A stretch of 59,911 nt of DNA from a virus. Its lineage: Duplodnaviria > Caudoviricetes. Shown piece by piece: positions 36,959 through 59,911 of the stretch. The translations under genes and the position numbers were made by a program. Location: positions 1 to 59,911 of the IMG/VR virus record IMGVR_UViG_3300044632_001473, one strand, 5' to 3'. Under the pieces are notes generated by a model. It saw only the letters and a list, made by a program, of their open reading frames with translations. It was not told where the DNA came from and made no database searches. How positions within the stretch are numbered: position 1 is the stretch's first letter; each line of letters starts with the position of its first letter.

Positions 36959-39100
36959 TTAGAAATCTAATTTAACTGATAAAACTTGAGTACCTAATCT
37001 CTTAATCGGTAACGGAGCCTTTGCAACAACTAATGGTTCTTTATTATCATTTAACAATTGAACTTCAGTTATAACCGGTGTACATGAACTACACGTTGGG
37101 TTTTGTGATGTTACAAATGCGTTTGACGGTAGGTTAATTAAAAAATTCATTTGTTCAATATCGGTAGCTCTAACTAACCTAACACTACCAGGGAATGGTT
37201 GTTCGTCACCAAATTGAGGTTGTGTTGTTGAACTTGTTGTACCTAAATAATCTGTACCAACACTTGTCATATGTGTTTCTAAATTGAAGGTTGTTGCTCC
37301 TGAATAATCTGAATATTTAATTGTAAATGTTGTTGCTAACAAATTATTTTTAGTAAACACTCCATTAATCTGTGAGGTGATATCAATATATTTCCAACCA
37401 TCTGGTGATGGTAAAGATGTAATATTTTCAACTCTTTGGATTAACGCAAATATTTTGTTTGCAACAAGTCCGTTTGATACGTCGTTTAAACTGGTCTTTA
37501 AAAAATTAAATTCATCACCAAATTTAAATGAGATTTGTGATGGAATTGCAGGAAAACATCCGTCTTCAGTACCTCCTAATCTAACTTTATTAAAATAGTT
37601 ACAAGGTAATGCATTAATCGTTTGATTTGATGTAAAGGTCATCATGTATGTTAACCAAACAGTTTGACCTGTTGTACTTAACATTGAACTATTTCCTACT
37701 GTATCGCTTGGTGTTGCATACACTTTTGGTGCAGGTAACGTATATTTTCTATTACTTCTGTAATCTAATGTTGCAACCAATTCTTGGTCGTCAAAAACCA
37801 CTATTTTATTATTGTAAAATACTTTACCTACTCTAACATTAGTCTCATCTAACAAATATCTAAATGGTAATGTAGAAGTTGCATTTTTTGTTGATTTAAC
37901 ATAGTAGTCTATAGAATCCATAGTAAATAATGCTCCGATAGTTGTTCCTGTACTTCTATGATATAATAAAAATGGTATATAAACTTCAAAATAATCTAAA
38001 TCGGTTATTAATTCATCATCATTATCAGTGGCTACATTGTTTGTAATTCCAGTACTAATATAGTCATCATATTTAAAAAATCTTTCTGGATCATTAATAA
38101 CATCACCCAATTCAGAATAATGAATAATTGCAACACATCTTTGTTCAGATGGTAATAATTCAATTACTTCATCATATGAATTTACAAAACTTGTTCCGTA
38201 ATTTTCATTAGTGAAATCTGGTATTGATATACTTGAAGTTGATAATCCCGAAAATGGTACAAATGTTTGTCCTGTACTCGTATATCCTAATCTTTCTTTA
38301 GTTGATACAAATACATTACTTGTATAACCTGATAAAGTTTCATCGCTAGTAGTTCCTCCAATTGGTTGTTGTGTCCAAATTGTATTTAATGTCCAAGAAT
38401 TTAATTGTTGTGATGGGTCAATTGGTGTTGGTAAACATACTGAAGCAATTTCACTTTCAATTGAATACTCCAATTCACATTCATTAGATATAACGGTTCC
38501 TGTTAAACTTAGTGAACCAGTTAAATTTGGTAAGTTTCTATCTAATGTTAATACATTACCAGATTTATTCGTTACTTTATAAACGAAACTATTCAAACTT
38601 GATTGTATTGTTGCAGTTTCACCATATAATTCACCTAACGTCAATGTAACATAACTACCACTTGCAAAATAACTTCCACTAGCCGACGTTGGTATTGTTA
38701 TTGTGTTACTTCCATTAATTGAACCTGAGGTAATTGTGAACGTTTCACATTCAATTGTTGTATTGTTTGGTATGTAATTTGAAACAAATCCCGCAGGTCC
38801 CATTTCATTTTTTATAGTGTATAATGTAGATTGTTGTACAGGATTTCCATATGTACTACTATCACTTGAATTTAACTTTAAAGGATATTTTACACCCGTT
38901 TCTTTATCAAACGGTGAGAAAACTTTTTCGTTTGGTTGAGTTCCTCCTGTATATGATGAAAACGCCGTTGAGTAATCAAATTCAGAATCCCCGACTTGGA
39001 AATAATTTATTTGAAAGTCACCCTTTGCAATTGCCTTTCTACCTTTTTGGGTGATTCTTGCTGATAAGTATTGTGCGTTATCGTTGTTTAAAAAACTCAT
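36959..39100 (-). CDS. Tail/baseplate structural protein
   Basis: N-terminal ITQKGRKAIA..YFQVGD and C-terminal ITEVQLLND..LVVAK resemble tail-collar/fibre attachment domains; TATTTAT upstream. Confidence 0.6.
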   Translation of the reverse strand: MSFLNNDNAQYLSARITQKGRKAIAKGDFQINYFQVGDSEFDYSTAFSSYTGGTQPNEKVFSPFDKETGVKYPLKLNSSDSSTYGNPVQQSTLYTIKNEMGPAGFVSNYIPNNTTIECETFTITSGSINGSNTITIPTSASGSYFASGSYVTLTLGELYGETATIQSSLNSFVYKVTNKSGNVLTLDRNLPNLTGSLSLTGTVISNECELEYSIESEIASVCLPTPIDPSQQLNSWTLNTIWTQQPIGGTTSDETLSGYTSNVFVSTKERLGYTSTGQTFVPFSGLSTSSISIPDFTNENYGTSFVNSYDEVIELLPSEQRCVAIIHYSELGDVINDPERFFKYDDYISTGITNNVATDNDDELITDLDYFEVYIPFLLYHRSTGTTIGALFTMDSIDYYVKSTKNATSTLPFRYLLDETNVRVGKVFYNNKIVVFDDQELVATLDYRSNRKYTLPAPKVYATPSDTVGNSSMLSTTGQTVWLTYMMTFTSNQTINALPCNYFNKVRLGGTEDGCFPAIPSQISFKFGDEFNFLKTSLNDVSNGLVANKIFALIQRVENITSLPSPDGWKYIDITSQINGVFTKNNLLATTFTIKYSDYSGATTFNLETHMTSVGTDYLGTTSSTTQPQFGDEQPFPGSVRLVRATDIEQMNFLINLPSNAFVTSQNPTCSSCTPVITEVQLLNDNKEPLVVAKAPLPIKRLGTQVLSVKLDF

Positions 39101-39133
39101 ATGTTATAAATATCTTTATTTAATTTTGTTTTA

Positions 39134-40657
39134 TTAATCTCCTAAATCGTAATTTAATAATATAATGTTGTTTACTTTAATTCTAATATTATCAATCTCA
39201 TCTGATCCACCACTACAATTACTTCTATATCTTGCATACATATCTTGAACAAATGTACTGCCTGTTGGTGTCCATGTTGTATATGTCGTTCCATTTATAC
39301 TATATTCCACAGTTGTATCTGGAGTTACAGGTCCACTTGTTCCATTAAAAGTAAATGTTACAGTTGAGACACCGGCATTATATGGTGTACTACCATCTTG
39401 GCAATATTCATTTAAAGGTGTTCCCTGTCCTATAGTTGCGGTTATACTTACAACATTACCCGCAACACCCGCCCCTCCACCAGAACCTCCAGCGGTAATA
39501 CAATCAGGACATGCATTGGTTCCTGTAAAATATCCATCCATGTATATTGGTGCTGTTTGAGTATATTCAAAATAAAATGGTTTTGCTTTATATGTCGTTT
39601 TAGTTGTAACTCTTCTACATACATTATCATCTAAATCTGTGGTAATAACGTCATTTACCGCCACATCGTCATTATCCGTCCAAATAGGTGACATATATTG
39701 ATCTATTACACCATCACATCTTGTCGTTTCCATCATATAATATAAGTCACAACTATTACAATTTGCAATAGAGCTTCCGTTCAAAACAATACCCGGAGGT
39801 ACCGTTAACGTAGCAAAAACACTATTTACCAATGGACCGTCATATCCACCAATCATACTTCCCCATGTTACACAATAACTATCTAATACATTTCCATTTT
39901 GGTCATATTCAATTACAGGGTAAATTGAACCCGAAACCATTACCGGCGCACTTAAATTATTCGCATAAGCTACATTTTCTGCACCTGATCCACATACTGT
40001 CACAGTGTAACCACTATATGTAAATCCTGCAAATTCACCATATATACAATCATAACATGTCCCATCAAATGGAGATATTCCATCAAGATTTATTGTCCAA
40101 TTTTCAGTTGGTGAAATCTCAATAACTGACCAACAATTATCACCAATGTCATAAACTGTTCCTTCTGTGATTTCAGCGGAAGACCTACCAATTGCCGATG
40201 GTACATATTCCTCCCCGAATCCACATGGGTCGGAATAATCCATAACTAAACTTTGCATTCCCCAATCTATTGTTTCATAATATTCCGCCACCATTGCTTC
40301 AGTCATACAAACATCAATAATTAACTGAGGACCAAATGGAAATTTAGTGACTTCTTTTCCTGCATATCTTAAATCACTACAATCACCTAAAGCATAATAA
40401 TAATATGTTGCGTCAGGTATATTTTGAATTGTTAAAAATCTGTCTGTTCCGTCACAAGTTCCAGTTGAACTCATTTTTATTACCTTAGTGGTATCAGAAA
40501 CTGTGTATACTGCTCCTGTTAATAAACTAGCTCTAGTTACTCCCGTTGCAAGGGCCGTTCCACTACAAGATGCACTACTAACACTGGTACATTCATATAA
40601 ATTAAATGGACCTGTTACTGTTGTTGCGGTTATTGTTATTGTAATTTGAAATGACAT
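39134..40657 (-). CDS. Cys-rich putative virion protein with the shared N-terminal 'GPFNLY' domain
   Basis: 507 aa; many Cys and CxxC pairs. Confidence 0.65.
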   Translation of the reverse strand: MSFQITITITATTVTGPFNLYECTSVSSASCSGTALATGVTRASLLTGAVYTVSDTTKVIKMSSTGTCDGTDRFLTIQNIPDATYYYYALGDCSDLRYAGKEVTKFPFGPQLIIDVCMTEAMVAEYYETIDWGMQSLVMDYSDPCGFGEEYVPSAIGRSSAEITEGTVYDIGDNCWSVIEISPTENWTINLDGISPFDGTCYDCIYGEFAGFTYSGYTVTVCGSGAENVAYANNLSAPVMVSGSIYPVIEYDQNGNVLDSYCVTWGSMIGGYDGPLVNSVFATLTVPPGIVLNGSSIANCNSCDLYYMMETTRCDGVIDQYMSPIWTDNDDVAVNDVITTDLDDNVCRRVTTKTTYKAKPFYFEYTQTAPIYMDGYFTGTNACPDCITAGGSGGGAGVAGNVVSITATIGQGTPLNEYCQDGSTPYNAGVSTVTFTFNGTSGPVTPDTTVEYSINGTTYTTWTPTGSTFVQDMYARYRSNCSGGSDEIDNIRIKVNNIILLNYDLGD

Positions 40658-40681
40658 ATATTATTTATAACTTTTTATTTT

Positions 40682-41857
40682 TTAATCGCACGCACATCCC
40701 GTACCGGTATATGTTTTTATTTCATAATTTGCTGGTGACGTATATTGAATACCATTAAGTGGTGAGAAACAATTGCCTTCAATTGTTATACCTGATGGTG
40801 CACTACCACTAAGTGCTACCGAATATATCGGTGATACACCTGAAGTTGGTCCTGTACATCTAACATAATCATAATAGGATTCTGGTATAGGAGTTACGGT
40901 AGGTCCTGGAGTTGGGGTAGGTGGGTTTGAACAAGAAGTACAAGATGTTTGTGCTGTTCCGGTTTGTGCTGAACCATCTCTTTTAAACTCTCTTTCATCC
41001 GTTCCATTAGACACCCAAAAAGTGTCATCATTTGTCATATCACCATATACGTTACCGTATGTGGGTGATGATAAACCTAATACCTTAGTTAAAGTACATA
41101 ATGATGTACCTCTAACTGTTACATTTACTGCCGCATATTCACCACCGCTACAAGCTGATGGACCATTATTTAAACTCACATAACCACTAAATGTAGTTTC
41201 AAATGGAGTAGGAGTTGGGTCTGGTGTTACAGTTGGTGTTGCAGTTGGTGTTACGGTTGGATTCGGTGTAGCGGTTGGTGTTGGTGTTACGGTTGGATTC
41301 GGTGTCGGTGTTGGTCCCACCGCAGTTGCGGTTGGTGTTACCGTTGGTGTGCTAGTAGGATTTGGTGTTGGTGTTGGTAACGTATTACCATAAACTGCAC
41401 TACCATTGAAATCACAACCCGGTGTTGGTGTTGGTGTAGGTGATGGTGTTGGTGTAGGAGTTGGTGTATTAGTTGGTGGTGGTGTTGGTGTTAAAGTTGG
41501 AGTCGCTGTTGGTGTGGCTGTTGGTGTAGGTGATGGGGTCGGAGTTGGTGTAGGTGTAGGGATACCAATAATACAAATACTTAATGGTGGATTATCTATA
41601 CAAACTCCTTTAAAACGTATTTGTATTTTCTTAGTTAATGGTGATGGTGCTGTGAATGTATAACCAGTACTTGCGGTTAAACCTGTAATACCATCTCCTC
41701 TCGGTACGTCAACTAAAAACGGTGTTGTTGATATTTCACTCGCACTACAATTTTGTCCATAAATTCCCGTATTATCAGTTACCGAATATAAATCAAAGGG
41801 ACCACAACCGGGACCTACTTCATCATGATTAACAAAAATTTTAGCAACAAACGACAT
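40682..41857 (-). CDS. PT-linker, Cys-rich putative virion protein
   Basis: 391 aa; N-terminal GPFDLY domain; CDF motif; shared Cys domain. Confidence 0.65.
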
Positions 41858-41868
41858 AATAGTTTTTT

Positions 41869-42246
41869 TTAAAATCCAGACACATATAATGCACTTGGGT
41901 TATCATCAAATTCACAACAATAGATACAATCTGAATAGTATTCTTTTTCGTGTATGTTTATATTTTCAATAACATAGTTACCTGTTACGTTATCGGTTAT
42001 TCTTACCCAAAACTTTAAATTATTGTATTGATTTGGAAAAACTTCAGGATTTCTTTGATTCGGCCAATTTGTTGGATTATAATATGAATCAATTGTTGTA
42101 CCAGAAAGATTCAAAGTATTGGTTGTATTATTATTAGAATACGTTTGCCAAGATGTAACACTATTAGGTGTTGCACCCGTTTTAAACTCAACTTTATAGT
42201 TGGTACTAAAACCCGTTATATCATGTAATCTAATAACTAATCCCAT
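41869..42246 (-). CDS. Hypothetical virion-associated protein
   Basis: 125 aa; TATTTAT upstream. Confidence 0.6.
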
Positions 42247-42279
42247 ATTCCAATAAATAGTGTTATCTATAAATTAAAT

Positions 42280-42307
42280 AAAAAACCCCTTATAATAAAG
42301 GGGTTTT
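42280..42307 (-). terminator. Intrinsic terminator
   Basis: aaaacccctt...aaggggtttt. Confidence 0.75.
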
Positions 42308-42331
42308 AATATTGTTATTTGTTTAAATAAA

Positions 42332-42826
42332 TTATTCACAATCGGAACAATCAACATTTGTGGTACAAGGTGTTGCGCAAGGCACTGATGTCATTAATCC
42401 AGAGTCAGAATCTATTTCTGTACCATTTCGTACACATACTGTTCTAGAAGAACCTGGTCCAACAAGCAATGAGGATAAAACATTATCTAAACATCTATAA
42501 TATGTGAATGTTATACCACCATCGTCTCGTCCTCCCTCATTATAAACCGTATAACATTCACAAGGTAATACTGGTTCAGATGTGGCCCAAGCTATTTGAG
42601 TTGTACAAAATCCACCACTTTCGGAACCTGTACTTGTAATTGTTCCTCCTGTTATTGAATCCGATAAACCTGTTGCGGTGTATCCAGTTGTAAGTACTGC
42701 TCTTGTTATTCCTGATGCAATAAAAACTCCGTTTAGTGCTCCACCACTTGTTGTGCCTGATATACTATAGTTACCAGATTGTGTGGTTCCTGATGTTGCT
42801 GCCGTTAATTTAAATGTTATGTTCAT
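42332..42826 (-). CDS. Two-domain protein: shared N-terminal domain plus a Cys-rich tip duplicated from the upstream gene
   Basis: 164 aa; C-terminus near-identical to that of 42874..49149. Confidence 0.75.
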   Translation of the reverse strand: MNITFKLTAATSGTTQSGNYSISGTTSGGALNGVFIASGITRAVLTTGYTATGLSDSITGGTITSTGSESGGFCTTQIAWATSEPVLPCECYTVYNEGGRDDGGITFTYYRCLDNVLSSLLVGPGSSRTVCVRNGTEIDSDSGLMTSVPCATPCTTNVDCSDCE

Positions 42827-43101
42827 ATGTCTTATTTCTTTTTATAAATATCTAGTTATTTTAATTATTTTTACTAACACTCCAAACAATCACCATTTGT
42901 AGTACATGGGCCTGGACAAGGCACTGATGTCATTAATACGGAGTCAGAGTCTATATCTGTACCATTTCGTACACATACTGCTCTAGAAGACCCTGGTCCA
43001 ACACTCAATGAGGTTAAAACATTATCTACACATCTATAATATGTGAATGTTATGGCACCATCGTCTCGTCCACCCTCATTATAAACCGTATAACATTCAC
43101 A
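42378..43101 (-). repeat. 185-bp direct repeat (42378-42562 / 42917-43101) encoding a Cys-rich C-terminal domain
   Basis: Manual alignment gives 13 mismatches in 185 nt and no indels. Confidence 0.9.
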
Positions 43102-46100
43102 ACTTGAAGGGTTAGGTGTTACCGTTGGTGTACTTGTCGGTAATGGTGTATTTGTTGCAGTTGGTTCTGGTGTTGGTGTTGCTGATGGACAAGTTACACA
43201 AGCCTCTTGTGGATATGCTCTATTAGATGATCCGAATTTACGATAATATCTTGATTGTCCCGATCCTTCACTTAACCAGAAATACCCGTTTATATCAATT
43301 TCTGCTTGAATAATGGTACCTTCAATATAACTATTAGCTTCGCACATTGTTCCATAAAATCCATTAAATTGATATGCAAAGTATGGTGTAAAGCTTCCAC
43401 CATTACACGCATCATATCCACTATCTAAACTAACATATGCCGTAAATGAAGTTGGTGGTATTGGAGTTAGTGTTGGTGTACTAGTAGGTTCTGGAGTTAC
43501 CGTTGGTGTACTAGTAGGTTCTGGAGTTACCGTTGGTGTGCTAGTTGGATTAGGTGTTACAGTTGGTGTACTGGTTGGATTAGGTGTTACAGTTGGTGTA
43601 CTAGTAGGTTCTGGTGTTAGTGTTGGTGTACTAGTAGGTTCTGGTGTTAGTGTTGGTGTACTTGTCGGTAATGGTGTGTTGGTTGCAGTAGGTTCCGGTG
43701 TGCTAGTTGGTAATGGTGTATTTGTTGCTGTTGGTAATGGTGTATTAGTTGGTAATGGTGTTGGTGTATTAGTTGGTAATGGAGTTGGTGTGCTCGTTAT
43801 AATAGTTAAATCCACATCAAAATCACAATTCGGTAATGGGGTTGGTACCGGTGTGTTGGTTGGTAATGGAGTTGGTGTACTTGTTATAATAGTTAAATCC
43901 ACATCAAAATCACATACTGGTGTTGGTGTTGGAGTTACAGTTGGAGTCGGTGTTGGAGTTGGTGTAAATGTTGGTTCTGGTGTTGGTGTTAGAGTTGGTG
44001 TTGCAGTTGGAGTTACAGTTGGGTCAGGCGTAGGTGTTGGTGTTACAGTTGGATTAGGGGTTACTGTTGGTTCAGGAGTTGGAGTGCTAGTAATTATTGT
44101 TAAATCCACATCAAAATCACATACTGGTGTAGGTGTTGGTAATGGAGTTACTGTTGGTTCAGGAGTTGGAGTGCTAGTAATGATTGTTAAGTCTACGTCA
44201 AAGTCACACGCTGGTGTTGGTGTTGGAGTTACAGTTGGAGTCGGTGTTGGAGTTGGTGTACTAGTTATTATAGTTAAGTCTACGTCAAAATCACATACCG
44301 GTGTTGGTGTTGGGGTAACTGTAGGAGTTGGTGTAGGAGTTGGAGTGCTAGTAATTATTGTTAAATCAACATCAAAGTCGCACACTGGTGTTGGTGTTGG
44401 AGTTACAGTTGGAGTCGGTGTTGGAGTTGGTGTACTAGTAATGATTGTTAAATCCACATCAAAGTCGCACACTGGTGTTGGTGTTGGAGTTACAGTTGGT
44501 GTAGGAGTTGGAGTTGGTGTACTTGTTATAATTGTCAAATCTACATCAAAGTCACATACTGGTGTTGGTGTTGGTGTTGGTGTTGGAGTACTAGTAATAA
44601 TTGTTAAATCCACATCAAAATCACATACTGGTGTAGGTGTAACAGTTGGTGTTGATGTTACCGTAGGAGTTGGTGTAACGGTTGGTGTTGGTGTTAAAGT
44701 AGGTGTTGTTGTTGGAGTACTAGTTGGTACTGGTGTTGCAGTTGGTGCTGGTGTTGCAGTTGGTGCTGGTGTTGCAGTTGGTGCTGGTGTTAACGTTGGC
44801 GTACTAGTTGGTAAAGGAGTTGGAGTACTAGTTGGTAAAGGAGTTGGGGTTGTATATAAAAAAGGGCTATTACAATCACGTGCTTCTAAACATTCTGTAT
44901 TTCCGTTATAAGTTCTCGTTAAGGATTCTACTGTTGGTGGTGTTACGTAACATGGGTCTTCGGTATCAAATGGACCACATACAGAATCAATATAGAATTG
45001 TTGTGTCTTTAAATCAACTCCATTATTTTTTACATATTTGTGTTGTAAAATAAATTGTTGATTATTAATACCATTGAATAAAATTAAATTTGTTACCGAT
45101 TGAGAGACATTTATATTAAAATATAAATCCGCGTCACAATACTCTAAATTAACTGAAATTACTTCAAATAGTTCTCCGTTTTTAGAAATTAAATAATCAC
45201 CATAATCGTAATAATCCTCATTATGATTACAACAAGGTTCAATAGGTGTTTCAGGTTTTACTTGTAATTGCTCAGCATATCTATTGTCAATAAAATGACT
45301 TTTAGTTCTAACAACTTCATTACCTGAAATATCTTTATTTGTATAAATCCTTAATTTTGTTGTCGGTAAAACTTCAATCTCAATATTCGTACCTCCTGTA
45401 ATTGGTCTAACTGTTACAACATTCTTTTTTATTGAAGCTAAAGTATCTTTAGATGTTACCGTTAAACCTGTTGTATTGTGTAATTGACTATAATCATTTT
45501 CTTCACTAAAATTTACAAATTGTTGATGTGTAAATCCTGTTAGTGAATTTTGTGTGACTGACATTAAAACATCACCAGGTATAATGTCCTTTACTTGTTT
45601 TGTTGTACCATTATTTAAAACAACATATGTGTCATATTTTAATCCATAATCATATGAATTTCTATATTCAATATTTGGAACAACTGTAAAACCAAGATTA
45701 TTTACATTTATATCGTCTTCAATTAGTCCTGTTGTTGATGGATTATCTTCATGTAGGTATTCTACATATTGTAAACTTAATCCATTAATTCTAACTTTCA
45801 AGTTACAGTTAGCTGCGTCTGTGAATAATAAATCAATAACGTCGTCTTCTTCAAATCCTAAAATAATACTACCACTATTACTACCAACCAATGGTACAAC
45901 ACTAACATTTGTATTTGTAAAATTATCTATTTTATAATAATCACTGAAAGTATCTTTATGGATATATACTGATGGGTATGAACCAATTGAACCACTTTGA
46001 ATAAATTGTGTTGTTCCTGTAATGTTGAATACAATATCTGCGTTTAGTTTACAATCAGTTCCTCCAGTATAAATCACAGGTAAATTATCGTTACATATTG

Positions 46101-49149: not shown

Positions 49150-50075
49150 TAAACGTTTGTAATTGTATCAAAATCTTGACTTTCGTCTATATCTGGTCTT
49201 TCTTCTCTGATTTCAAATAATGATTCGTTAAGATCATCTTTAATTTCAAATAAGTTATATTGTTTATAGATTGAGTTATTATTGTTGTTATCGTAAATCG
49301 TGTAAATACCTCTCGCAATGTCCTTACTTTGATTACCGTAAAGTGCATGTGCTAATGTAGATGAATCATGTTCTACCATTTCAACCTCAATAGTTGTTGG
49401 GTTGAAATAGGTATTTGTTAAAATAATCTTTTGAGCGGGACTACCTATAAACGGAATTGTATTCGGTTTATTTGATGGTGCGGAAGATGGTGTTATTGTT
49501 AAAAACATCAAATTACTTGCATTTTCACTATATTGGTATCTAACTGATTTTTGAGTACTACTTGATAAGTTAGCGGTAACGGGTGTACAATAAAAAGACG
49601 ATGTTACAACTTTATAAAAATTAGGTATTTTTTGATTGGTTAATGAATTAATATACTCAATTCTATATCCAACTAAACCCTGTGGTGTAAATTTATTTCT
49701 ATCACCTGATGGTACATTAGATAAGTCAATTACAACTCCTCTAACTGATGGTAATGAAGCTAAAACTCCACAATCCGTAATTGTTGTTCTAATTTGTTTT
49801 GGTCTGATGTGAAGTGTATATATACCTAAATCCGTAAAATCATCTGCGGATAGTTTTAAATTATACATTCCACCCAAAATTTCAACATTCTGTGCTTGAT
49901 TATCGTTTGTCGTTCCTGAATTATGATAAACAGGTGTCAAGACACTAATTGATGTTAATTTTTTTAACGTAACAGGTGCGGTTGTGGTTCTACCTGAGAC
50001 ATAATGATAGAATATATCCACATCATCTGGTGATACATCCGCCGGTCTAACTATCCCATAAGATCCAATTGCCAT
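49149..50075 (-). CDS. Putative baseplate/tail structural protein
   Basis: 308 aa, coupled to the wedge-like gene. Confidence 0.65.
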
Positions 50076-50760: not shown

Positions 50761-51690
50761 TTATTGTTTTCTCACCTTAAAATATCCATTTCCATAGATT
50801 TCTAATTCATCCATATTATCAATCTCCCCTAATCTTAAGTTATTTTCCATAACACCTTGTTTACCTCTTTCAACAAATATGTCAGAATAAACCTGTGGGT
50901 CATCAATAAATCCAAGAAAATGTTCATTTCTTGTAATTACTTTATTAAAAACTTCTTCTTTTGTATAACCTGTGGTGTTACCTGTAATCATGGTATAACC
51001 ATCCTCAAAATCTCTATATGATAAATTATCTATCGTATAACCAGTAAATAATGAACCTGAAAACGAGCCTGAAGTTAAACCAGTGAAAACCGTAGTTCCA
51101 TATTGACGTAATTCACCAATTCTACTACCCCCTATTGCCATATAGGTAAATGTAGTATAACCTGTATTATTCGTGTATTCTAAATCATTTAAATAATCTT
51201 GAGTTTGTCCAGTTATATTGGTATATGCGGGAATTGTCATACCTGTAAATGTTCCTAAAGGATTAGTAACTGTAATATTTTGTGGTACTGTAATTGTCTT
51301 TTTAAGTACTTCTGTTGACCAAGGTGTTGATGAAGATATTGTAATAGTGTATTGTGTACTACCAGTATATGTTTTTACAACTGAAGGTAAATTATTTCCC
51401 ACTATTCCACTATTAACCGTTAAACCTGATGTTGTTCCATCCCCCCAATTTATTGTGAACGTTTGTTCTGTGATTTTTCTTAACTTATCTGGATTTACAG
51501 AATTATATATGGTAATAGTTGAACCTGATTGTTTGTATGTGAAATTACATAGTTGTTCAATTTGTTCCATATCACCATCAAATGAAACCATAACACCCAT
51601 TTCATCAACTGATGAATCTAAAAACACAGGTATTTGATATGAACCTGTATAATCGTTAGATTTTAATATTTTATGTTCAATTCTTTTCAT
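50761..51690 (-). CDS. Putative tail/baseplate protein with a PKD-like segment
   Basis: 309 aa; INWGDG motif; dense in [ST]GxT. Confidence 0.65.
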   Translation of the reverse strand: MKRIEHKILKSNDYTGSYQIPVFLDSSVDEMGVMVSFDGDMEQIEQLCNFTYKQSGSTITIYNSVNPDKLRKITEQTFTINWGDGTTSGLTVNSGIVGNNLPSVVKTYTGSTQYTITISSSTPWSTEVLKKTITVPQNITVTNPLGTFTGMTIPAYTNITGQTQDYLNDLEYTNNTGYTTFTYMAIGGSRIGELRQYGTTVFTGLTSGSFSGSLFTGYTIDNLSYRDFEDGYTMITGNTTGYTKEEVFNKVITRNEHFLGFIDDPQVYSDIFVERGKQGVMENNLRLGEIDNMDELEIYGNGYFKVRKQ

Positions 51691-51700
51691 CTTTTACTTT

Positions 51701-54244
51701 TTATTCAGGGGTTAGAACTCCTCCGGAGGTTATACATGGTAATGGTGGTGCGTCAGTGATTTGAATACTTTCTCCGACATATGTAACATATATGTCAACT
51801 GGTGATGCTATTGGAATTGAAACTCCGTATATTGTTCCTTGTAATCCAATACCCGTATTGGTTAATATTGCACCTGTTGAATTATCAAATCTTGACTCTG
51901 AAAATGCTCCATCAGCAAACACATTAACCCTTATTTCTCTATAAGCACATTCACCATCTTCAACTCTTCTAAACACACCTAAATTAAGATTTGCTCCTTG
52001 ATTAACACTAAGAGATAATAAGTATGTTCCACTTTCGGTTGATGATTTTTGAATACCTCCAAATGAAGAACCAATAGAACTTAAAGTTGTACTATATGTT
52101 TGATAAATTAATTGAATATTATTAGTTGTTGAATTATATGGAATTCCACTTAATTGACCGTAAATGTTAACCGTAGTTAATGGTATAGGTGTTGGGGTTG
52201 GTGTTGGGTCATTGATATTTAAACAGTTAATACAATTACCACTTGGTAATAAAGTATTTGTTAATCCTGATCTCTTATAAAGTCTAACATAACTACCTAA
52301 TGTTGAGTTGTGTGTTATACCGGTTTGTGATATCCAAATATATTGATTCTGAGTCATTTCATCTAATACCCAGTTATAACCTAGTGAATTATCAGTTTCA
52401 ATAGAAGTGGCATCACAAATATTTGTTGCTGAGTATAGCCACGCATCCACTCCTCCATATTCCGTATTAATAGGACTGGTATGTTCACATGATGTGTCAT
52501 CACCAAATTCAACGTCTCCTGGGTCACCCACCCATAAATCATTTGCAATAATTCTATTTGGTGTAGGTGTAGGTGTTGCTGTAGGTGTAGCCGTAGGTGT
52601 AGGTGTTACAGTAGGTGTTGGACTTGGTGTAGGTGTAGGTGTTGCTGTAGGTGTTGGACTTGGTGTAGGTGTAGGTGTTGCAGGTAAACAAGTTACAGTT
52701 GCATATGTTATATTATTATAATCTTCTTCATTAGGTGAACTTAATGTATTTACTTGGAGGCAATCTTCAATCGTTACAAATCCCGTTGTCGTATAAATTC
52801 TAGATTGTGACACTCCTTCACAATCCAAATAGAAAATTTCAAATGGAGCATCTATAACATTAAATGTCACACCTGTTACACAACTAACTGGATTACTATC
52901 ACAATCAACTACCACGGAATTAACTCTTATGTTATTGTAATCTCCGTTATCTCTCATTACGAAATACCAAGTACCATCTGGTATGTTAGTCCATGATTCT
53001 CCATCGGTATATCCATAATTTGTCGCAGCTAACGCTTCCGCAGATGTTGCAAAGTAATTACGTCCAAACTGATAAACTCCAGAACCGCCACTTCCTTCTC
53101 CAATTGTTACATACCCTATTTGACCAACACAAGTCTTAGTTATTACAAAGTTGACTTGGTCTTCTGAACCAGGTATTGGTGTTGGAGTTGGTGTAGGTGG
53201 TATGAATACCGGTTGTGTTGCTAAAGTACCTCCACCTTTTTCAAAAAATTGTATTGTTTTTGTCAATCCACTATCACTAAATCCGACTCTATCTCCTTTA
53301 GTTCCTCCCGTGTATTTGTATATTTGATAAGTTCTACCAGTTAAATTGAAATCAACTTGATAGTACATATCATTTTTTTCATCTATAGTTGCACCAGTAC
53401 TTAAAGCTCTATTTGTAAAATCTAATATATCACCATCTTTAGCGTTAAAAAATTTAGCAGTCATAAAGAAAGTGTTACTTGTTTCTGTTCCAATTAAATC
53501 ACTATCTTCTAAAACTGTTTCATCTTCAAACCAAAACAAATACATGTTTTCTTTGTTTTTATAATTTGAACCCATAAAAACAGGTACATGAATATTGTAA
53601 CCAAAATTTAATCCCGTATAAAAAAACTTTTCACCTAATGGTAAAGAAAGATTTTTTGCAAAAACTAATCTTCTATTTTGTCTTGTTGGTGGTTCACATA
53701 ATAATGTATTAACACTAGTTAAAGTCCAACCACTACCAGTTTGTGGATTATTATTTATATTATTTGAAATATTTGAAGTATAAGTATTACCTGTAAATGT
53801 CGTTGTAGTTCCACTTGTAGTTGACGCAATATAATAAACTTTATCACCTATACCATAGGTTGTATTATTTATCCAATTTTTTGGTGGAGTCTTAAAAAAT
53901 TCTAATCTAAAAAAACTTTCTGTTGATTGTTTCAACATTAATTCGTTTTCTCTTTTAGTGATTCCAACTGCTTCATAATCTTGTACATATGTTGAACCAG
54001 ATTTGAAATAAAATTGAAACCATATGTCTGTTTGATTTAATGTAACTCCACTAATTGTTTTATTATATGGTTCATGAATATATCTAACGGTTTCATAATT
54101 ATCTGCCGGATTAATAATATCTTTTAAAACCTCATCCTCAAATTGTACAAGATTATCTTGCCAACCCAAATCTGTTTGAAAATTTTGTTCACTATTAATA
54201 ACAATATTTAAATCATTTGTATTTTGTAATATTTTCATTAACAA
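51701..54244 (-). CDS. Putative tail protein with PT linkers and Cys-rich modules
   Basis: 847 aa; globular N-terminal part followed by a modular C-terminus. Confidence 0.7.
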   Translation of the reverse strand: MLMKILQNTNDLNIVINSEQNFQTDLGWQDNLVQFEDEVLKDIINPADNYETVRYIHEPYNKTISGVTLNQTDIWFQFYFKSGSTYVQDYEAVGITKRENELMLKQSTESFFRLEFFKTPPKNWINNTTYGIGDKVYYIASTTSGTTTTFTGNTYTSNISNNINNNPQTGSGWTLTSVNTLLCEPPTRQNRRLVFAKNLSLPLGEKFFYTGLNFGYNIHVPVFMGSNYKNKENMYLFWFEDETVLEDSDLIGTETSNTFFMTAKFFNAKDGDILDFTNRALSTGATIDEKNDMYYQVDFNLTGRTYQIYKYTGGTKGDRVGFSDSGLTKTIQFFEKGGGTLATQPVFIPPTPTPTPIPGSEDQVNFVITKTCVGQIGYVTIGEGSGGSGVYQFGRNYFATSAEALAATNYGYTDGESWTNIPDGTWYFVMRDNGDYNNIRVNSVVVDCDSNPVSCVTGVTFNVIDAPFEIFYLDCEGVSQSRIYTTTGFVTIEDCLQVNTLSSPNEEDYNNITYATVTCLPATPTPTPSPTPTATPTPTPSPTPTVTPTPTATPTATPTPTPNRIIANDLWVGDPGDVEFGDDTSCEHTSPINTEYGGVDAWLYSATNICDATSIETDNSLGYNWVLDEMTQNQYIWISQTGITHNSTLGSYVRLYKRSGLTNTLLPSGNCINCLNINDPTPTPTPIPLTTVNIYGQLSGIPYNSTTNNIQLIYQTYSTTLSSIGSSFGGIQKSSTESGTYLLSLSVNQGANLNLGVFRRVEDGECAYREIRVNVFADGAFSESRFDNSTGAILTNTGIGLQGTIYGVSIPIASPVDIYVTYVGESIQITDAPPLPCITSGGVLTPE

Positions 54245-56046
54245 TCAATTGGGTTTATATTATTAAAGTTATTTAATCCATCTGTTTTATTTGTGAACGA
54301 TTTTTCATTTCTCAAATAAAAATTAATGTCTTTTACCACATAATGTAAATTATTAATGAATGGAAAATTTGTTCCGTTTCCATCTTGATCTAAAAAACCA
54401 TGGTCATACAAATCTCTCCATCTCCATAGATTTTCTTTTTCATCATAAATAGTATTTTCAGGTAGATTAAGAATGTCTTTTGTTTTTGATGTTTCTATAT
54501 ATGGTGATAACTCTCTAAGTTTAACTCTATAATGTGGTTGATAAAAGTATCCTACTGTATTACCTGATGTTGCACTAGAATAATTAGAACTTGAATCTTG
54601 TCTATGATTAAAAATCGTTGTTCCTCCTATTGTTTTATTATGTGAAAATTTATGAAATGATTCACTAATAATTCTTTCTTTAAAATCTTTTTTATTATAC
54701 TCAACAAAGGCACCTGTTAATACTGTCCCCAATGGTACTGTATTTCCACTTGTAAAACCAGTGGTACCGGTATTACCGGTAAAAAATGTTTTTCCTATTG
54801 ATGTTTCCGTTGCTGTATCTCCACTAAATTGTGTATCAACCCATGTATTATGAAAATTAAATTTATAACCGACTTTTGGTGGATATGTAAAATAACCATT
54901 TCCATTTCTCAATAATACAGTTATATAAACTTCAGTTGGTGTATACCCTAAATTATTTGTAATACCAGTTAACGTAAATGTTTTTTTAAAATCATACAAA
55001 ATAGATTCTGGTCTATTCCTTTCAACCAACACATCATTTTCTTGTAATGGATTTTCAAATAATATTTTTCTTTCGTGTTCCCAAATTGGCGTTTCAAAAC
55101 CAACTTTATCCATTATATAATCATCTACAGTGGTTAATGTTTTATGTTTATGTACATAATATTGTGAAGTTGTACCTGTGATATCCAATAAACTTAAACA
55201 TCTTTTTCCTAAAACAAATGTTACTGCGTTTAATGTTAAACCTGTGGTAAATTCATTTTTTTGTAAATTAATTACATATTTTTCAGAATCATATGTTTCA
55301 TTACCAACACTTTCAATATAAAAGGTTCTACCCGTAACATTTATAGAACTGTTTAATGTTCCACCTGAAATTGTTATATATTCACCTTGTAACATTCCAT
55401 GTTCTACAGGTGATGTTAAAATAAAATAATTCCCTCCATCGGTAACTCTAAATGGTATACCATCACCAGAAGTGAAACAAAAAGTTTTACCATCACCACA
55501 TCCAGTTGTTGTTCCCGATAATGTATATTTTATTGGAAATGTTGAATCTTGTCCATAAACATAACTCAAATATAAATTCCAATTCTTGTATGGAGCTTCT
55601 ATTGATGTTGTTGTTGTATGTCCTGTATATCTCGTTCCTTCTAATGTCATACCAGATGATACAAATATATTCATAGTACTACCACTATAAGGTGTGACTA
55701 CTTCTCTTAGTACATCATTTCTGAGTAATGCAAATTCATTATAAGGAACATAACCATCATTACTTCCCGTTCCGTCACCAGCAACATAAAAGTTTTTTTT
55801 CAATGGGTTATATTCAGTTGAACCTGAATACATATTACGAAAAATCATTTTCATCTTTCCAAAAATCTTATATGTTTTTGATTGATTTCTTTCATCATCA
55901 AATAAAGTTGGTAAATCTAAAATAATGTTTCTTTCACCTTCTCTCATCAATGTTTCATTATTATCTAATTTAACATTTAGAGTTACATCTTCTTCGTCAG
56001 CCTTAAAGTACCTTTTAGTAGGTAATAATATTTCTTTCTTTTTCAT
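54238..56046 (-). CDS. Putative tail/baseplate structural protein
   Basis: 602 aa; dense in [ST]GxT; coupled to both neighbours. Confidence 0.7.
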   Translation of the reverse strand: MKKKEILLPTKRYFKADEEDVTLNVKLDNNETLMREGERNIILDLPTLFDDERNQSKTYKIFGKMKMIFRNMYSGSTEYNPLKKNFYVAGDGTGSNDGYVPYNEFALLRNDVLREVVTPYSGSTMNIFVSSGMTLEGTRYTGHTTTTSIEAPYKNWNLYLSYVYGQDSTFPIKYTLSGTTTGCGDGKTFCFTSGDGIPFRVTDGGNYFILTSPVEHGMLQGEYITISGGTLNSSINVTGRTFYIESVGNETYDSEKYVINLQKNEFTTGLTLNAVTFVLGKRCLSLLDITGTTSQYYVHKHKTLTTVDDYIMDKVGFETPIWEHERKILFENPLQENDVLVERNRPESILYDFKKTFTLTGITNNLGYTPTEVYITVLLRNGNGYFTYPPKVGYKFNFHNTWVDTQFSGDTATETSIGKTFFTGNTGTTGFTSGNTVPLGTVLTGAFVEYNKKDFKERIISESFHKFSHNKTIGGTTIFNHRQDSSSNYSSATSGNTVGYFYQPHYRVKLRELSPYIETSKTKDILNLPENTIYDEKENLWRWRDLYDHGFLDQDGNGTNFPFINNLHYVVKDINFYLRNEKSFTNKTDGLNNFNNINPIDC

Positions 56047-59000
56047 TAATCTTCAGATGTAAATGCGTCTTTAGGACCATACAAGTCAATAAATTTATCC
56101 ATTCCACTTTTTCCCGCAATTAGACCAAAGTAAAATTGGTATGGTGTTGATAGAATTTGTTTATTTCCACTATAATAATCTTCTCTCCTTGGTATTACTA
56201 AATCTGTGGTGTCCGTCCAATTAATTACTTGCCATCCTGTTGCTCCCGACATTGGATTTGTAGTGTCGTTTCCTGCGTTGCCATATCTAACAAATAATTT
56301 ACCCGATGTTGGTACCGTTTCAGTTCCTCCTGTAACATACAAATATGTGAATCCTGGATATTCGGAATTATATTCTGTATATCCACTATTGGTACTTACA
56401 ACATCATAATCTACGTCATCCGTTAAATTTAAATTAGTATTACCTGTTACACCATTATTTGTTTTTGTCATAGGTAATAACATATATTTGTCAGATGGAT
56501 CTGAATATGAACCAGTTAATGTATAACCATATGTCATACCCTGTAATGGTTGTAATTCTAATGAACTATAATTCCATGATTGATTGCTTCTTCCTGCACC
56601 TCCAGGACCAAATCCCGTACCACCTTTGTCCCATAAATAAAATGGAACGGGTTGTGATGATTCTGTTAATCTACCAGGCTCATTTAAACATAATCTAACT
56701 CTTTCACCATCTTCATCTAATTCCATAGTTACAGGTAATGGACCATAACTCCCACTGATTTGAAAAAATGGCTTATTTAATTCTGGATCTAATGTATCAT
56801 ATCTATAACCTAAATATTTTGGATTTTCTAAATCAAATTCTTCAATACCCACTTCATTATTTATTGATAATAATTGAAGAATGTCACCATCTAAAACATT
56901 ACGAATACCTAATTTATATCGGAACCCTTTATTACTAAAAAACATATCTAAGCTACCTGTAGCGTCAGCCACATCCATTCTATAGTTAATTGCTAAACCT
57001 AATAAATCACCTAGTGGTTTATATGATGTTGCTCCTATTGAACGAGCAACAGAACAGTTCGGGTCTAAAGATTCATCAATACAAATTTCTTTTATAAATT
57101 CATCTCTTGGTCCTAAATCAACTATAGTTGTTGGTCTATTTAAATTGTTTTTATCAAATCCTGTTGTTGTTTTAAAAGATGCCGACCTATAATAAAATCT
57201 ATTTTGATCAAAAACAAAACGAGCTAAATTTCTACAATATTTTAAAACTGACTCAGATGTTGCATCTGCTAATTTTCTAAATTTTTTAGCCTTAAATTGA
57301 GTAAAATATAATGAGCCTGATAACCAGTTATCAATAAATCCATAGTTAACAATTCCACCACAAAACATTTTACCGACTCTTTTTCTTCTATAATATTCAC
57401 TTAAAATATCTAATAATCTTTTATTACTTTGTGAACCAGGTACCATATAAAATATACCATTCATAAATTCAGATTTACCAGAAATTGTTGTTCTCGTATA
57501 TGACTTTCCATTGTATGATTTTGGTAAAGCATAACCATCGGAATCTGAAACATTTGTTGCTACCACATCGGTACCATCGGATATAGTTGCAACACCACCT
57601 CTTGATGCTTCGGTTGATCCTGTTTGTGTATAATATAAAGAAATTAAAGATTCATTATATGGTGTATCATATACTCCACATCCTGATTCTAATGGTACTA
57701 TTGGATCAGTAATTGGTCCATTTTCACCATAATCTAAACTTACAACATCATATGTAAATACACCATTTTGTACTATAAAAGAATTACTTGGGTCATTAAA
57801 TACTAATAAATTATTTCCACCAATTGTAGAATATTTAATAAAAAGTTCTCCCGTGGTATTAGAAGCACTTAGTGGAAATACACCCGTATCTGTTTTAATT
57901 CCATAATTTTGTTGTATTGATAAAAAATTATTTACACTTGTTGGTGTTGTGGCATTTACACACTCTCCATTTGTTGGTTGTGTAAATGTTAAATAACCAC
58001 TTGGTGTTGAACCAGTAATAATACCTATTGGATTAGATAATATTCCGAAGTCGGTTACATAAAATTTTACTTCTCCAACAACACAATAATTTAAATCTGA
58101 TTCGCCATTTGATGATAAGGCCTCAGTACTACACTCATCACATTCAGGATATGATACTAACGGTAAACCTTTTTGTCCGGTATCCATTAAACTATAACCC
58201 ACATTTTTCATTCTTCTACCTAAACTACCTAATGGACAGATACCCAAAAAACAGGTATTTTCAAATGAGGTACCAATAGATATAAATAACTTAGATAATA
58301 CATTGAAGAATAATAAAGTAACAATATTAAATAAATTTTCAATTGCTAATAAAACATCCGATATTAATAATTTAAATGTATAATTTTTAACTCCGAAATT
58401 TGATGGTGGTGTTAATTTATCTCCACAATCTTCTTCTTCTGATGGAGTTGTTTCATTTATGTTGGCAAAATTATATTTTGTTGTTAAATCGTCTATTGGA
58501 GCACCAAAAACTCCTACTGTGTAGGCTGCAGTTGGAGCTAATCCTTTAGTTATTGCATCAACACCAAAAAAATGACTGTGAAAAGATGATACAGTATAAA
58601 CTTTGTTATATGTAAATCTATAAAAATAATCCTGTGGATAATATTCTCCATTTTGATTATTTAAAATTAATGACAGTGCATCAGATGGGTATCCACTATA
58701 TTGAGTACCGAAGTAATATGAACTATCGTCAATCGTATAACCAGTTTGTGAAGGTGTTGCACCTGTTTGTATTACTTTTTGAAACTCTCTAATATTAGGA
58801 ACTAAAAAATCTGCATTTGCTCGTGTTCTTTCTAAACTTTTATCATTTAAATTAAATCTAAATCTATAACATGCGGATGTTGGGATACCTTTATTTGGGT
58901 CATTAGTGATTTCATTCTCACCGAATTCGTTAGTAATAACATAATCCATGTTCATCTCCACAGGTAATACAAAACCACCATCATCTGGTATGTCTTCATC

Positions 59001-59911
59001 AATTGGTAAAAATTCTAAATAAGGTCTATTAAATTCATCCTTAATTGGCATAAATCTAATCGCCTCAATGTTGGCTGATTTAGTGACTAAGTCACATTTT
59101 CTACCCATTTTTCTTCTTGGAATACAGTTTTTATTAACTGAATTTTTACTTGAGTCAGTAAAAACTCCTCCAATCAAATATGCTTTAGGTTGTATGTTAA
59201 CACCTCTTTCTGATAAATCAAAATCGGTTCTTGTTATTCCTATTTCACATAATTCTTCGTTACCCCAAAATGGATATACCTCAACACTTCTATCAAATGA
59301 AATAATTTGTGGTAATGAATTCAAATCTTCAGATGATTTGAATGTGTAATTATTTTTAAAACTATCAACTCCAATACCCAATCTTTTAAAATCCGCAGGT
59401 CTTAATGAAAAACATCCAATGTCCGATAAATCAACATCTACATGTACTGTTTGTACTCCGATAGGGACACCCCATATCATAAAGTCGCCTGCACTATTTG
59501 TTTTAACGGTGTAATTATAATATTTTTCGTAAACTTCTAAAACCGCCTCATTTTCTAAAATATCAGATTGATCAGGAAATGTACCAGTTGATGCGTGACC
59601 TCCATGTTGTTTTCTTGATGGTAACAAGTTATATCTATACCCATCATCATTTTTATCTGTAACTTCCTTATATGGGTACAATACAGATATTACAGGGTCA
59701 TTTTCATCTTCTTCTAATAGGGGTATGAATATAGAAACTCTAGCATTACCAATACCAAATCCGTTGTTTGCTGTAATTCTACCACAAACAACACCATAAT
59801 CGGAACACATTGAGGTATAGATTTGCTGTTGTGTAAACTTTAAGGACAAAATTTCAAGTACGTCAAAATCTTGTTTGAGTTCAACAGTTACTTTTTGGTC
59901 CTTACCAATAT
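56046..59911 (-). CDS. Large tail/baseplate protein, start lies beyond the window
   Basis: The frame stays open past 59849 (IGKDQKVTVELKQDFDVLEIL...); N-terminal GRITAN..IGNARVSI is prealbumin-like; internal hydrophobic segment. Confidence 0.7.
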   Translation of the reverse strand, partial: IGKDQKVTVELKQDFDVLEILSLKFTQQQIYTSMCSDYGVVCGRITANNGFGIGNARVSIFIPLLEEDENDPVISVLYPYKEVTDKNDDGYRYNLLPSRKQHGGHASTGTFPDQSDILENEAVLEVYEKYYNYTVKTNSAGDFMIWGVPIGVQTVHVDVDLSDIGCFSLRPADFKRLGIGVDSFKNNYTFKSSEDLNSLPQIISFDRSVEVYPFWGNEELCEIGITRTDFDLSERGVNIQPKAYLIGGVFTDSSKNSVNKNCIPRRKMGRKCDLVTKSANIEAIRFMPIKDEFNRPYLEFLPIDEDIPDDGGFVLPVEMNMDYVITNEFGENEITNDPNKGIPTSACYRFRFNLNDKSLERTRANADFLVPNIREFQKVIQTGATPSQTGYTIDDSSYYFGTQYSGYPSDALSLILNNQNGEYYPQDYFYRFTYNKVYTVSSFHSHFFGVDAITKGLAPTAAYTVGVFGAPIDDLTTKYNFANINETTPSEEEDCGDKLTPPSNFGVKNYTFKLLISDVLLAIENLFNIVTLLFFNVLSKLFISIGTSFENTCFLGICPLGSLGRRMKNVGYSLMDTGQKGLPLVSYPECDECSTEALSSNGESDLNYCVVGEVKFYVTDFGILSNPIGIITGSTPSGYLTFTQPTNGECVNATTPTSVNNFLSIQQNYGIKTDTGVFPLSASNTTGELFIKYSTIGGNNLLVFNDPSNSFIVQNGVFTYDVVSLDYGENGPITDPIVPLESGCGVYDTPYNESLISLYYTQTGSTEASRGGVATISDGTDVVATNVSDSDGYALPKSYNGKSYTRTTISGKSEFMNGIFYMVPGSQSNKRLLDILSEYYRRKRVGKMFCGGIVNYGFIDNWLSGSLYFTQFKAKKFRKLADATSESVLKYCRNLARFVFDQNRFYYRSASFKTTTGFDKNNLNRPTTIVDLGPRDEFIKEICIDESLDPNCSVARSIGATSYKPLGDLLGLAINYRMDVADATGSLDMFFSNKGFRYKLGIRNVLDGDILQLLSINNEVGIEEFDLENPKYLGYRYDTLDPELNKPFFQISGSYGPLPVTMELDEDGERVRLCLNEPGRLTESSQPVPFYLWDKGGTGFGPGGAGRSNQSWNYSSLELQPLQGMTYGYTLTGSYSDPSDKYMLLPMTKTNNGVTGNTNLNLTDDVDYDVVSTNSGYTEYNSEYPGFTYLYVTGGTETVPTSGKLFVRYGNAGNDTTNPMSGATGWQVINWTDTTDLVIPRREDYYSGNKQILSTPYQFYFGLIAGKSGMDKFIDLYGPKDAFTSED

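Follow-up and report, generated by a model that had tools for sequence, protein, structure and literature searches.

A clade-specific [ST]-G-x-T motif in the late proteins of uncultured jumbo phages, a candidate sequon for virion glycosylation

The motif and the late genes that carry it

The DNA analysed here (the window) is a 59,911-base stretch from a virus of the Caudoviricetes and makes up the whole of IMG/VR record IMGVR_UViG_3300044632_001473. CheckV places its completeness at 18%, from which the source genome would be that of a jumbo phage of about 330 kb. The GC content is about 30% and all long open reading frames (ORFs) lie on the minus strand. The subject of this study is a four-residue motif, Ser or Thr followed by Gly, a variable residue and Thr ([ST]-G-x-T). 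A sequence-only reading of the window had reported that this motif saturates the virion proteins only, and had proposed that a phage enzyme recognises it and modifies, probably glycosylates, the virion surface. The label "virion protein" derives from synteny with a relative, G001 (335,630 bases, 100% complete, 351 ORFs), whose 184-241 kb span is syntenic with the window. The late genes are listed below with protein lengths in amino acids (aa) and the fraction of [ST]G dipeptides that are followed by x-T.

36959-59849, minus strand: late region carrying the motif, 13 ORFs
56046..59849, minus strand: 1267-aa protein, 8/26, z = 5.5; syntenic with G001 184356-187748
54238..56046, minus strand: 602-aa protein, the strongest motif carrier, 16/20, z = 14.3; beta-rich fold
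51701..54244, minus strand: 847-aa protein, 12/23, z = 7.5
50761..51690, minus strand: 309-aa protein, 10/14, z = 9.7
49149..50075, minus strand: 308-aa module protein, 2/3
42874..49149, minus strand: 2091-aa protein, 16/38, z = 6.1; motifs at aa 133-1251
39134..42826, minus strand: four variable genes of 507, 391, 125 and 164 aa, 3/13, 4/12, 2/5 and 5/11
36959..39100, minus strand: 713-aa protein, final gene of the module, 7/15, z = 5.3

These counts reproduce those made earlier by hand for the 602-aa and 309-aa proteins; the four misses in the latter are TGSY, SGSF, SGSL and SGIV, three of them [ST]GS as had been reported. They also bear out the "about half" given for the 713-aa protein and the "many" given for the 847-, 1267- and 2091-aa proteins, and an SbcC-like protein outside the late region, at 27281..29617, indeed has 0 of 5.

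Enrichment was assessed against a control in which residues were shuffled within each protein, with 1000 shuffles per protein. Across the 13 late ORFs x-T follows 85 of 181 [ST]G dipeptides, compared with 16.0 +/- 3.9 in the shuffles (z = 17.8). This is about five times chance, and the six large proteins are each enriched (z = 5.3-14.3). Among the variable genes, those with 2/5 and 5/11 reach p <= 0.003, while 39134..40657 (3/13) and 40682..41857 (4/12) are not individually significant. In contrast, the 29 ORFs of the replication/other region (12911..36897) yielded 1/37, with no single ORF enriched. The late ORFs (10 of the 13 scanned) are without meaningful Pfam or PHROG match, and the label "virion protein" comes from synteny; we consider it a reasonable one.

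The positions of the motif are coupled. In the late ORFs Thr occupies +3 (counting the Ser/Thr as position 0) in 85 of 181 cases, compared with 16-42 of approximately 180 at other offsets, and the coupling around Gly between Ser/Thr at -1 and Thr at +2 has an odds ratio of 7.5 (p = 6e-21); the same coupling in the early ORFs gives 0.45 and is not significant. With the middle residue varied, the ratio is 0.47 for Gly, 0.27 for Thr and at most 0.14 for every other residue, and at +3 there are 85 Thr versus 10 Ser. Near-miss patterns occur at chance in the late ORFs ([ST]G.S, z = 0.2; [ST]A.T, z = -0.4; N.[ST], z = -0.9). Among patterns of this four-residue form, TG.T and SG.T are the most enriched, barring Pro/Thr linker patterns and the rare CD.D. 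The [ST]G dipeptide is itself in excess in these ORFs (182 versus 118 +/- 9.5), and position 0 is Thr in 53 of the 85 sites. The D-[ST]-[AILVMT] motif of general O-glycosylation in Bacteroidota is depleted rather than enriched in the 13 late ORFs, with 16 occurrences versus 35.7 +/- 5.1 in shuffles (z = -3.9).

The flanks of the motif are informative over a short distance. A hydrophobic residue stands at -1 in 45 of 85 sites and Thr at -2 in 21 of 85, and there is no information outside positions -2 to +3 in the late ORFs. The variable position, which had been said to vary freely, does accept many residues; charged residues are scarce there, however, at 6 of 85 versus a background of 18%. Codons at the motif are used as in the background, with both families for Ser represented, AGT/AGC included, which indicates selection on the protein and not on the DNA; a DNA-level motif was ruled out on these grounds. 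Hidden paralogy or a shared domain was likewise rejected, at the level of BLAST, given the confined information and a search among the late proteins that found only one shared module, of 75 aa at the C-terminus. From their sequences, the motif-bearing proteins otherwise appear to have no detectable similarity to one another. Together the results show a short linear motif under selection in the protein, [ST]-G-x-T, usually with Thr and then a hydrophobic residue ahead of it, and the earlier view that it is not a repeat stands.

Several late genes have further features of their own. In the 2091-aa protein Pro/Thr linkers occupy aa 1433-1901, downstream of the motif stretch; they include five 17-residue Pro/Thr runs at an exact 29-residue spacing, over which the GC skew is locally positive, and TP.P is the most enriched pattern of all in the late proteins (113 versus 4.2 expected). 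The shared 75-aa C-terminal module, 84% identical between the 2091-aa protein and the 164-aa ORF at 42332-42826, suggests exchange of a distal, possibly receptor-binding, tip between neighbouring genes. Six ORFs (39134-42826 and 50077-50742) had no BLAST match in G001, in which their flanks are syntenic, and these segments look like a hypervariable insert in a fibre/baseplate-region module. For the function of the 602-aa protein, neither Pfam nor PHROG gave a match, nor did tblastn against INPHARED.

Occurrence in relatives and placement on the particle

The 602-aa protein has more than 1000 metagenome homologs. The 120 listed homologs at 63-100% identity all keep 9-19 motifs among 13-25 [ST]G dipeptides. 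Their alignment has about 10 well-conserved sites, 58 columns that bear a motif start, and a hypervariable stretch where motifs arise anew in differing registers. Distant homologs (<=37% identity) have 0-4 motifs, and 10-11 of the 16 sites of the query are mostly gapped in 56 of them. Pooled over proteins, the motif follows 1002 of 2545 [ST]G dipeptides in 26 loci of the near clade and 1847 of 6666 in 80 loci of the far clade, against a Thr background of about 9-10%, so the enrichment extends to relatives. The possibility that the motif is confined to the near clade was ruled out, since the far clade carries it in other proteins and at other positions.

Homologs of the 309-aa protein occur in 91 loci with 3-14 motifs each, in similar numbers in the near and far clades. 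Only 6 motif columns are common to the near clade (28 columns) and the far clade (30 columns), a comparison made at about 30% identity, where alignment error may exaggerate the turnover. Similar motif numbers with few common columns indicate that this family keeps its motif density while the positions move.

In controls outside this group the motif is not enriched. Twenty-five virion proteins of T4 gave 17/173 (odds ratio 1.15, p = 0.66) and no [ST]G excess (173 versus 157.5 expected), and 22 proteins in the first 100 kb of the cultured and complete Microcystis phage Mel-JY01 gave 6/125. Eight other phage contigs, which carry genes similar to the E. coli glycosyltransferase TibC (G009-G016), summed to 160/1884. 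The absence of the motif from T4 and Mel-JY01 indicates that phage structural proteins do not carry it in general. Taken together, the motif is genuine and clade-specific, and it recurs across a large group of jumbo phages, all uncultured, whose genomes measure 290-335 kb.

The complete relative allowed the motif to be placed on the particle. Seven of the 351 G001 ORFs are enriched at binomial p < 1e-3 and all lie within 143-204 kb: the tail sheath (7/17, phrog_23), a 519-aa protein without assigned function (8/11), a 1947-aa protein (10/24) and four homologs of window late proteins. The homolog of the 713-aa protein (201963-204041) has 18/28. That of the 1267-aa protein, which directly follows a gp6-like baseplate wedge gene, has just 1/16. 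The counts are 3/7 for the major head protein, 0/2 for the tail tube and 0/6 for the wedge itself, which was assigned by phrog_219/phrog_6 and is encoded directly upstream of the homologs of the window genes. In the sheath, all seven sites fall at residues 35-602, while the conserved core (653-963) contains five [ST]G and no motif. The sheath of the far-clade relative G003 follows the same pattern, and the two pooled give 0/9 in the core versus 12/28 outside it (Fisher p = 0.018). In these relatives the motif favours peripheral over inner parts of the particle.

Glycosyltransferases of the relatives and the rest of the window

G001 encodes two homologs of TibC, at 291982-294105 (707 aa) and 286337-287467 (376 aa), both outside the span syntenic with the window (the TibC-like region lies at 286-294 kb). 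TibC hyperglycosylates the TibA adhesin of E. coli, modifying Ser-313 (in N-S-G-G) and Ser-322, and uses Asp-110 as its catalytic base, according to the available text of PMC4358343. Residues 370-700 of the 707-aa ORF match TibC (PDB 4rap) with E = 2.8e-52, compared with 0.06 for the best lipopolysaccharide heptosyltransferase of the WaaC type, and residues 13-369 of the 376-aa ORF match 4rap with E = 9.5e-51. The Pfam matches are Glyco_transf_9 and, weakly, TibC_1st. By our mapping of alignment columns, the Asp-110 position (in an LGD motif) and the iron-finger cysteines 339, 342, 358 and 370 (C-x-x-C-W ... W-C-P ... F-E-C) align in both paralogs. We also read the Trp and Lys of TibC as aligned in both, with Thr aligned in the 707-aa and Gly in the 376-aa paralog. 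By sequence, the two are clear homologs within the BAHT (TibC/Aah) family.

Such enzymes recur in the group. Homologs are present in G002 (64% identity) and in far-clade G003 (47%), that is, in three of the three genomes that are at least 97% complete. Overall they were found in 86 IMG/VR stretches and in only 4 of 50,697 deposited phage records. In Mel-JY01 a TibC-like domain is fused to an FkbM methyltransferase in a 1226-aa protein that is annotated solely as a methyltransferase (L272; PP395634.1, 3065-8430). An adjoining Mel-JY01 "structural protein" has 19 [ST]G, mostly in the form hydrophobic-[ST]-G-S-hydrophobic. Being cultured, this phage could be used to test TibC-like enzymes of phages.

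Additional glycosylation genes are abundant in G001. There are six matches to glycosyltransferase family 2 (GT2; five above the Pfam cut-off), and five to GT1 (two above), together with a sugar-nucleotide cluster comprising short-chain epimerase/dehydratases of the SDR family, a 2-oxoglutarate (2OG) oxygenase domain, a carbamoyltransferase and a paralog resembling UDP-glucose dehydrogenase. A glycan island at 284598-298710 surrounds a collagen/S74 fibre gene and contains the two TibC-like genes, a GT4-FkbM methyltransferase fusion, a radical SAM enzyme, a GDSL acylhydrolase and two GT2-like genes.

The remainder of the window consists of the following features.

2280-12555, minus strand: collagen-like region, three giant proteins of 1128, 1513 and 751 aa
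12911-36897, minus strand: replication/other region, with an AAA ATPase, two DNA methyltransferases, a sigma-70 factor, ClpP, an amidase, an SbcC-like protein, a phosphoesterase, a UDP-glucose dehydrogenase-like protein and a GIY-YIG endonuclease
27281..29617, minus strand: SbcC/Rad50-like protein of 778 aa; its Pfam SbcC_Walker_B match is weak and under the cut-off
34742..35566, minus strand: UDP-glucose/GDP-mannose dehydrogenase-like gene, 274 aa; Pfam PF00984 (1e-25) and PF03721 (1e-22)
36172-36897, minus strand: GIY-YIG plus NUMOD3 homing endonuclease (Pfam), near the dehydrogenase-like gene

The collagen-like ORFs match Pfam Collagen (PF01391) with E = 1e-52, 5e-73 and 2e-30 (175.9, 241.2 and 105.0 bits versus a cut-off of 27.2). 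They consist of (G-[ST]-S)n blocks broken up by globular segments, so that Ser/Thr precedes Gly in each repeat. The looser pattern [ST]Gx[ST] accounts for 114/159, 182/230 and 58/84 of their [ST]G dipeptides, and x-T for merely 10, 10 and 5. Their GC content (0.37-0.40) is above that of the remainder of the window. We regard these proteins as candidate substrates of the TibC-like enzymes found in relatives.

The dehydrogenase-like gene is the sole sugar-nucleotide gene within the window, and a G001 paralog at 29% identity lies elsewhere in that genome. Both it and the GIY-YIG/NUMOD3 gene are missing from G001 at this position, which suggests a mobile insertion. Within the replication/other region a primase-like match is weak, and a 527-aa protein (22265-23848) combines a TacA-like antitoxin domain (PF08681, E = 7e-6) with coiled-coil matches; its gene adjoins that of the phage sigma-70 factor (23852-24661).

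What reads the motif

We propose that some phage factor acting in trans reads the motif, a view supported by its clade specificity, the coupling of three positions, the strictness at Gly and Thr, its presence in unrelated proteins, the peripheral bias and the turnover of positions. The genes that the relatives carry make glycosylation the likeliest form of reading. On this view [ST]-G-x-T would mark its Ser/Thr as the acceptor of O-linked sugar, added in the host cytoplasm while the particle is assembled or earlier. The best candidates for the writer come from the near-complete relatives, whose TibC-like protein O-glycosyltransferases, of the BAHT family, would work with other phage glycosyltransferases and a sugar-nucleotide pathway and would also modify (G-x-S/T)n collagen-like fibres. 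Thr at +3 would act as a lineage-specific recognition determinant, and the outcome would be a sugar coat on fibres, the outer baseplate and the outer face of the sheath. That the motif is a glycosylation sequon on virion proteins is plausible from the sequences, though we would put it somewhat short of an even chance. The full proposal, in which these phages coat the particle exterior with O-sugars at [ST]-G-x-T by means of TibC-like enzymes and related aquatic phages use lineage-specific [ST]-G variants, is offered tentatively and, taken whole, would be improbable.

The search for glycosyltransferases that the sequence-only reading had called for was strongly positive in the complete relatives, with two TibC-like genes and several GT2/GT4 genes above the Pfam cut-off. 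Several observations weigh against a TibC-like writer for the motif. The window, 18% of its genome, has no TibC-like, GT2 or GT1 gene. For this phage the enzyme is extrapolated from relatives with 602-aa proteins that are approximately 65%, 58% and 37% identical. By our reading, Ile stands in both G001 paralogs where TibC has its sugar-binding Arg-286, so the donor sugar may differ from TibC's. Furthermore, Thr was not modified by TibC (available text of PMC4358343), and Thr is the more frequent residue at position 0 here. Within one lineage, no clade was found that has the motif without the enzyme, or the reverse, and no lineage was found that has lost both. Similarly, no individual G001 glycosyltransferase showed a presence/absence pattern that tracks the motif over 11 other genomes, most of them fragments.

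The neighbours of the TibC-like genes point to another substrate. A cassette of a TibC-like gene, a GT4/methyltransferase gene and a collagen-like fibre gene with an S74 chaperone domain recurs, and the TibC-like gene stands beside such a fibre gene in G001, G010, G011, G013 and G016; many TibC-like homologs elsewhere, in divergent phages, likewise adjoin collagen-like genes, and collagen matches occur in six of nine contigs tested. Since each triplet of these fibres supplies an [ST]-G, the fibre is the more obvious substrate. Of nine other TibC-positive contigs, all 10-52% fragments, only the distant G008 is enriched in [ST]GxT: it has a double TibC-like domain, 42/189 motifs and four ORFs at p < 1e-3, which counts in favour of the proposal. 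The others (G009-G016, 19-52% fragments) have 0.96-1.87 times the expected motif, and Mel-JY01 has a TibC-like domain yet no enrichment in its first 100 kb. The link between the TibC-like enzymes and the motif is therefore a weak one, which we only infer.

Other contigs differ in the residues that follow [ST]G. Some that are TibC-positive contain ORFs in which [ST]G is in strong excess and leads into other residues, as with [ST]GS in G011. Head protein homologs in G011 (67781-69436) and G016 (20405-22036) have 18 and 16 [ST]G and no x-T, with several in the form hydrophobic-[ST]-G-S. In L097, an unrelated viral contig, a 664-aa collagen-like protein (574-2568; also in L098 and L099) of (G-Y-T)n/(G-D-T)n followed by (G-x-Q)n and (G-P-x)n is encoded 3.4 kb from a TibC-like gene of 38% identity. 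The TibC-like gene of G008 does not lie in a virion module: its neighbours match G001 179860-181638 and 177431-178807, a ribonucleotide reductase large subunit and a DnaB-like helicase.

The strongest alternative is that [ST]-G-x-T is an unmodified structural micro-motif. A Ser/Thr side-chain cap resembling an ST-turn, unusual backbone angles at Gly and the strand-restarting effect of a beta-branched Thr would combine into a favoured way to leave a strand or form a loop, which would have spread through the Thr/Gly-rich fibre and baseplate proteins of these phages by descent and convergent drift, with no enzyme involved. We judge this account unlikely, though a serious contender. The Thr at -2 and the hydrophobic residue at -1 are the flank expected of a strand end, and the motif does tend to come after a beta-strand. 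We built an AlphaFold2 model of the 602-aa protein (pLDDT 83.4, pTM 0.84), which is mainly beta, and by our reading of its DSSP string 11 of the 16 sites have strand residues within the six preceding positions. Homolog alignments add to this case and, in part, count further against a sequon. Ser and Thr interchange freely at position 0, where together they make up 91%, followed by Asn and Asp, as in Asx/ST-turns; at +3 Val replaces Thr in 2.6% of cells at majority-motif sites, and Ile/Val do so at single sites. A single site of the 16, site 74, is common to distant homologs (20 of 56). At one site of the 309-aa family the T-G-Y-T of the near clade corresponds to T-A-Y-T in far-clade sequences, and close homologs keep the same x at a given site, TGHT in 16 of 16 being one example.

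Set against the structural account, a physical preference should be universal, yet T4, Mel-JY01 and the eight other contigs lack the motif. DSSP assigns the 16 sites of the 602-aa model to coil, strand and helix contexts, with the motif Gly in coil at 12 of 16 versus 55% coil in the whole model, and its assignments show no single hairpin geometry or recurring local conformation. Ser at +3 is in no excess, though it is common in loops. Finally, positions turn over at a kept density and the motif is re-created in hypervariable insertions. Foldseek searches with the 602-aa model found no PDB match at E <= 0.001 and, in BFVD, only an uncharacterised homolog, and the score from the ESM Atlas (0.76) was below the useful range. 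A model of the 309-aa protein (pLDDT 57.4, pTM 0.38) was too poor for mapping sites and was not used. Should the motif prove merely structural, it would still be unusual, as a clade-specific four-residue solution shared by many unrelated proteins.

A reader of a different kind would make the motif a site of phosphorylation, acylation or a radical-SAM change, a dock for an assembly chaperone or decoration protein, or part of hydroxyl-rich loops that directly bind an environmental or host-surface ligand. Clade specificity, coupling and turnover imply some reader without naming which. A radical SAM gene and a GDSL acylhydrolase adjoin the G001 TibC-like genes, and TibC-like enzymes occur elsewhere without the motif. 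Glycosylation genes are nevertheless by far the most abundant modification genes in the relatives; no kinase or docking protein turned up, although none was searched for. We consider such a reader quite unlikely. Finally, an origin in composition, low complexity or gene-calling error is very improbable, for although the late proteins are Thr-rich (12.9% versus 5.8%) and Gly-rich, the window contains Pro/Thr linkers and collagen-like repeats and two ORFs have TTG starts, the shuffles preserve composition, just three sites stand in a tandem G-x-T register, the motifs of the 2091-aa protein lie outside its linkers, the collagen-like ORFs were masked or analysed apart, and the pattern is upheld in the 120 close homologs, from independent assemblies.

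Were the motif a glycosylation tag, a simple readable code in the structural genes of these phages would programme a sugar coat, predictable from sequence and trackable as sites shift. Consequences would follow for virion stability, for attachment to polysaccharide-rich surfaces and for escape from proteases, grazers or host surface defences. Under the full proposal the coat would also be the first glycan shield directed by a sequon to be described in a bacteriophage, and its proteins a new class of BAHT substrate.

The proposed sequon can be compared with several known systems. Like N-x-S/T it is short, leaves one position free and depends on a hydroxyl residue, and turnover at a kept density resembles the shifting of glycan shields. 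It differs in that the candidate acceptor is an O-linked Ser/Thr, Gly is obligatory and Ser cannot stand for Thr, and N-x-[ST] itself shows no excess in the late proteins. Glycosylated collagen-like repeats are also known, for example the (G-P-T)n of Bacillus anthracis BclA. In these, Ser/Thr at the Y position of G-x-Y precedes Gly and gives [ST]-G-x-[ST], whereas the sites described here are mostly isolated in globular proteins, and the collagen-like proteins of the window use Ser in that place.

Among phages, mycobacteriophage glycosyltransferases decorate virions with glycans at the C-termini of capsid and tail tube proteins (Freeman et al. 2023, as cited in PMC12619734). Here, in contrast, the sites are dispersed and internal, in fibre/baseplate-region proteins and the outer sheath, and the G001 tube lacks them; the available text of PMC12619734 cites no sequon of the [ST]GxT form. 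Moraphages, as described there, form a lineage of large phages from aquatic habitats; their hosts are predicted to be Bacteroidota, and they share four core glycosyltransferase orthogroups and have antitoxin-like genes. The resemblance lies in their being uncultured aquatic jumbo phages with such genes, and the window has its TacA-like domain; that text mentions neither the motif nor a TibC-like enzyme for moraphages. In the literature searched, which left subscription journals and supplementary files outside its coverage, no phage TibC-like enzyme or [ST]GxT tag was described.

The closest parallel is TibC/Aah, which acts on TibA and AIDA-I of E. coli. Its substrates are bacterial adhesins and not virions, it modifies Ser and not Thr, and no requirement for Thr at +3 is described in the available text of PMC4358343. 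The phage enzymes, known here from relatives, differ in the Ile at Arg-286 and in an extra N-terminal region of approximately 370 aa in one paralog. What the two would share is a cytoplasmic enzyme that places many sugars on the hydroxyls of a beta-rich surface protein, with an acceptor Ser in TibA that stands in N-S-G-G (PMC4358343). If the proposal is correct, the TibC/Aah family would move beyond its E. coli adhesin niche into phage biology.

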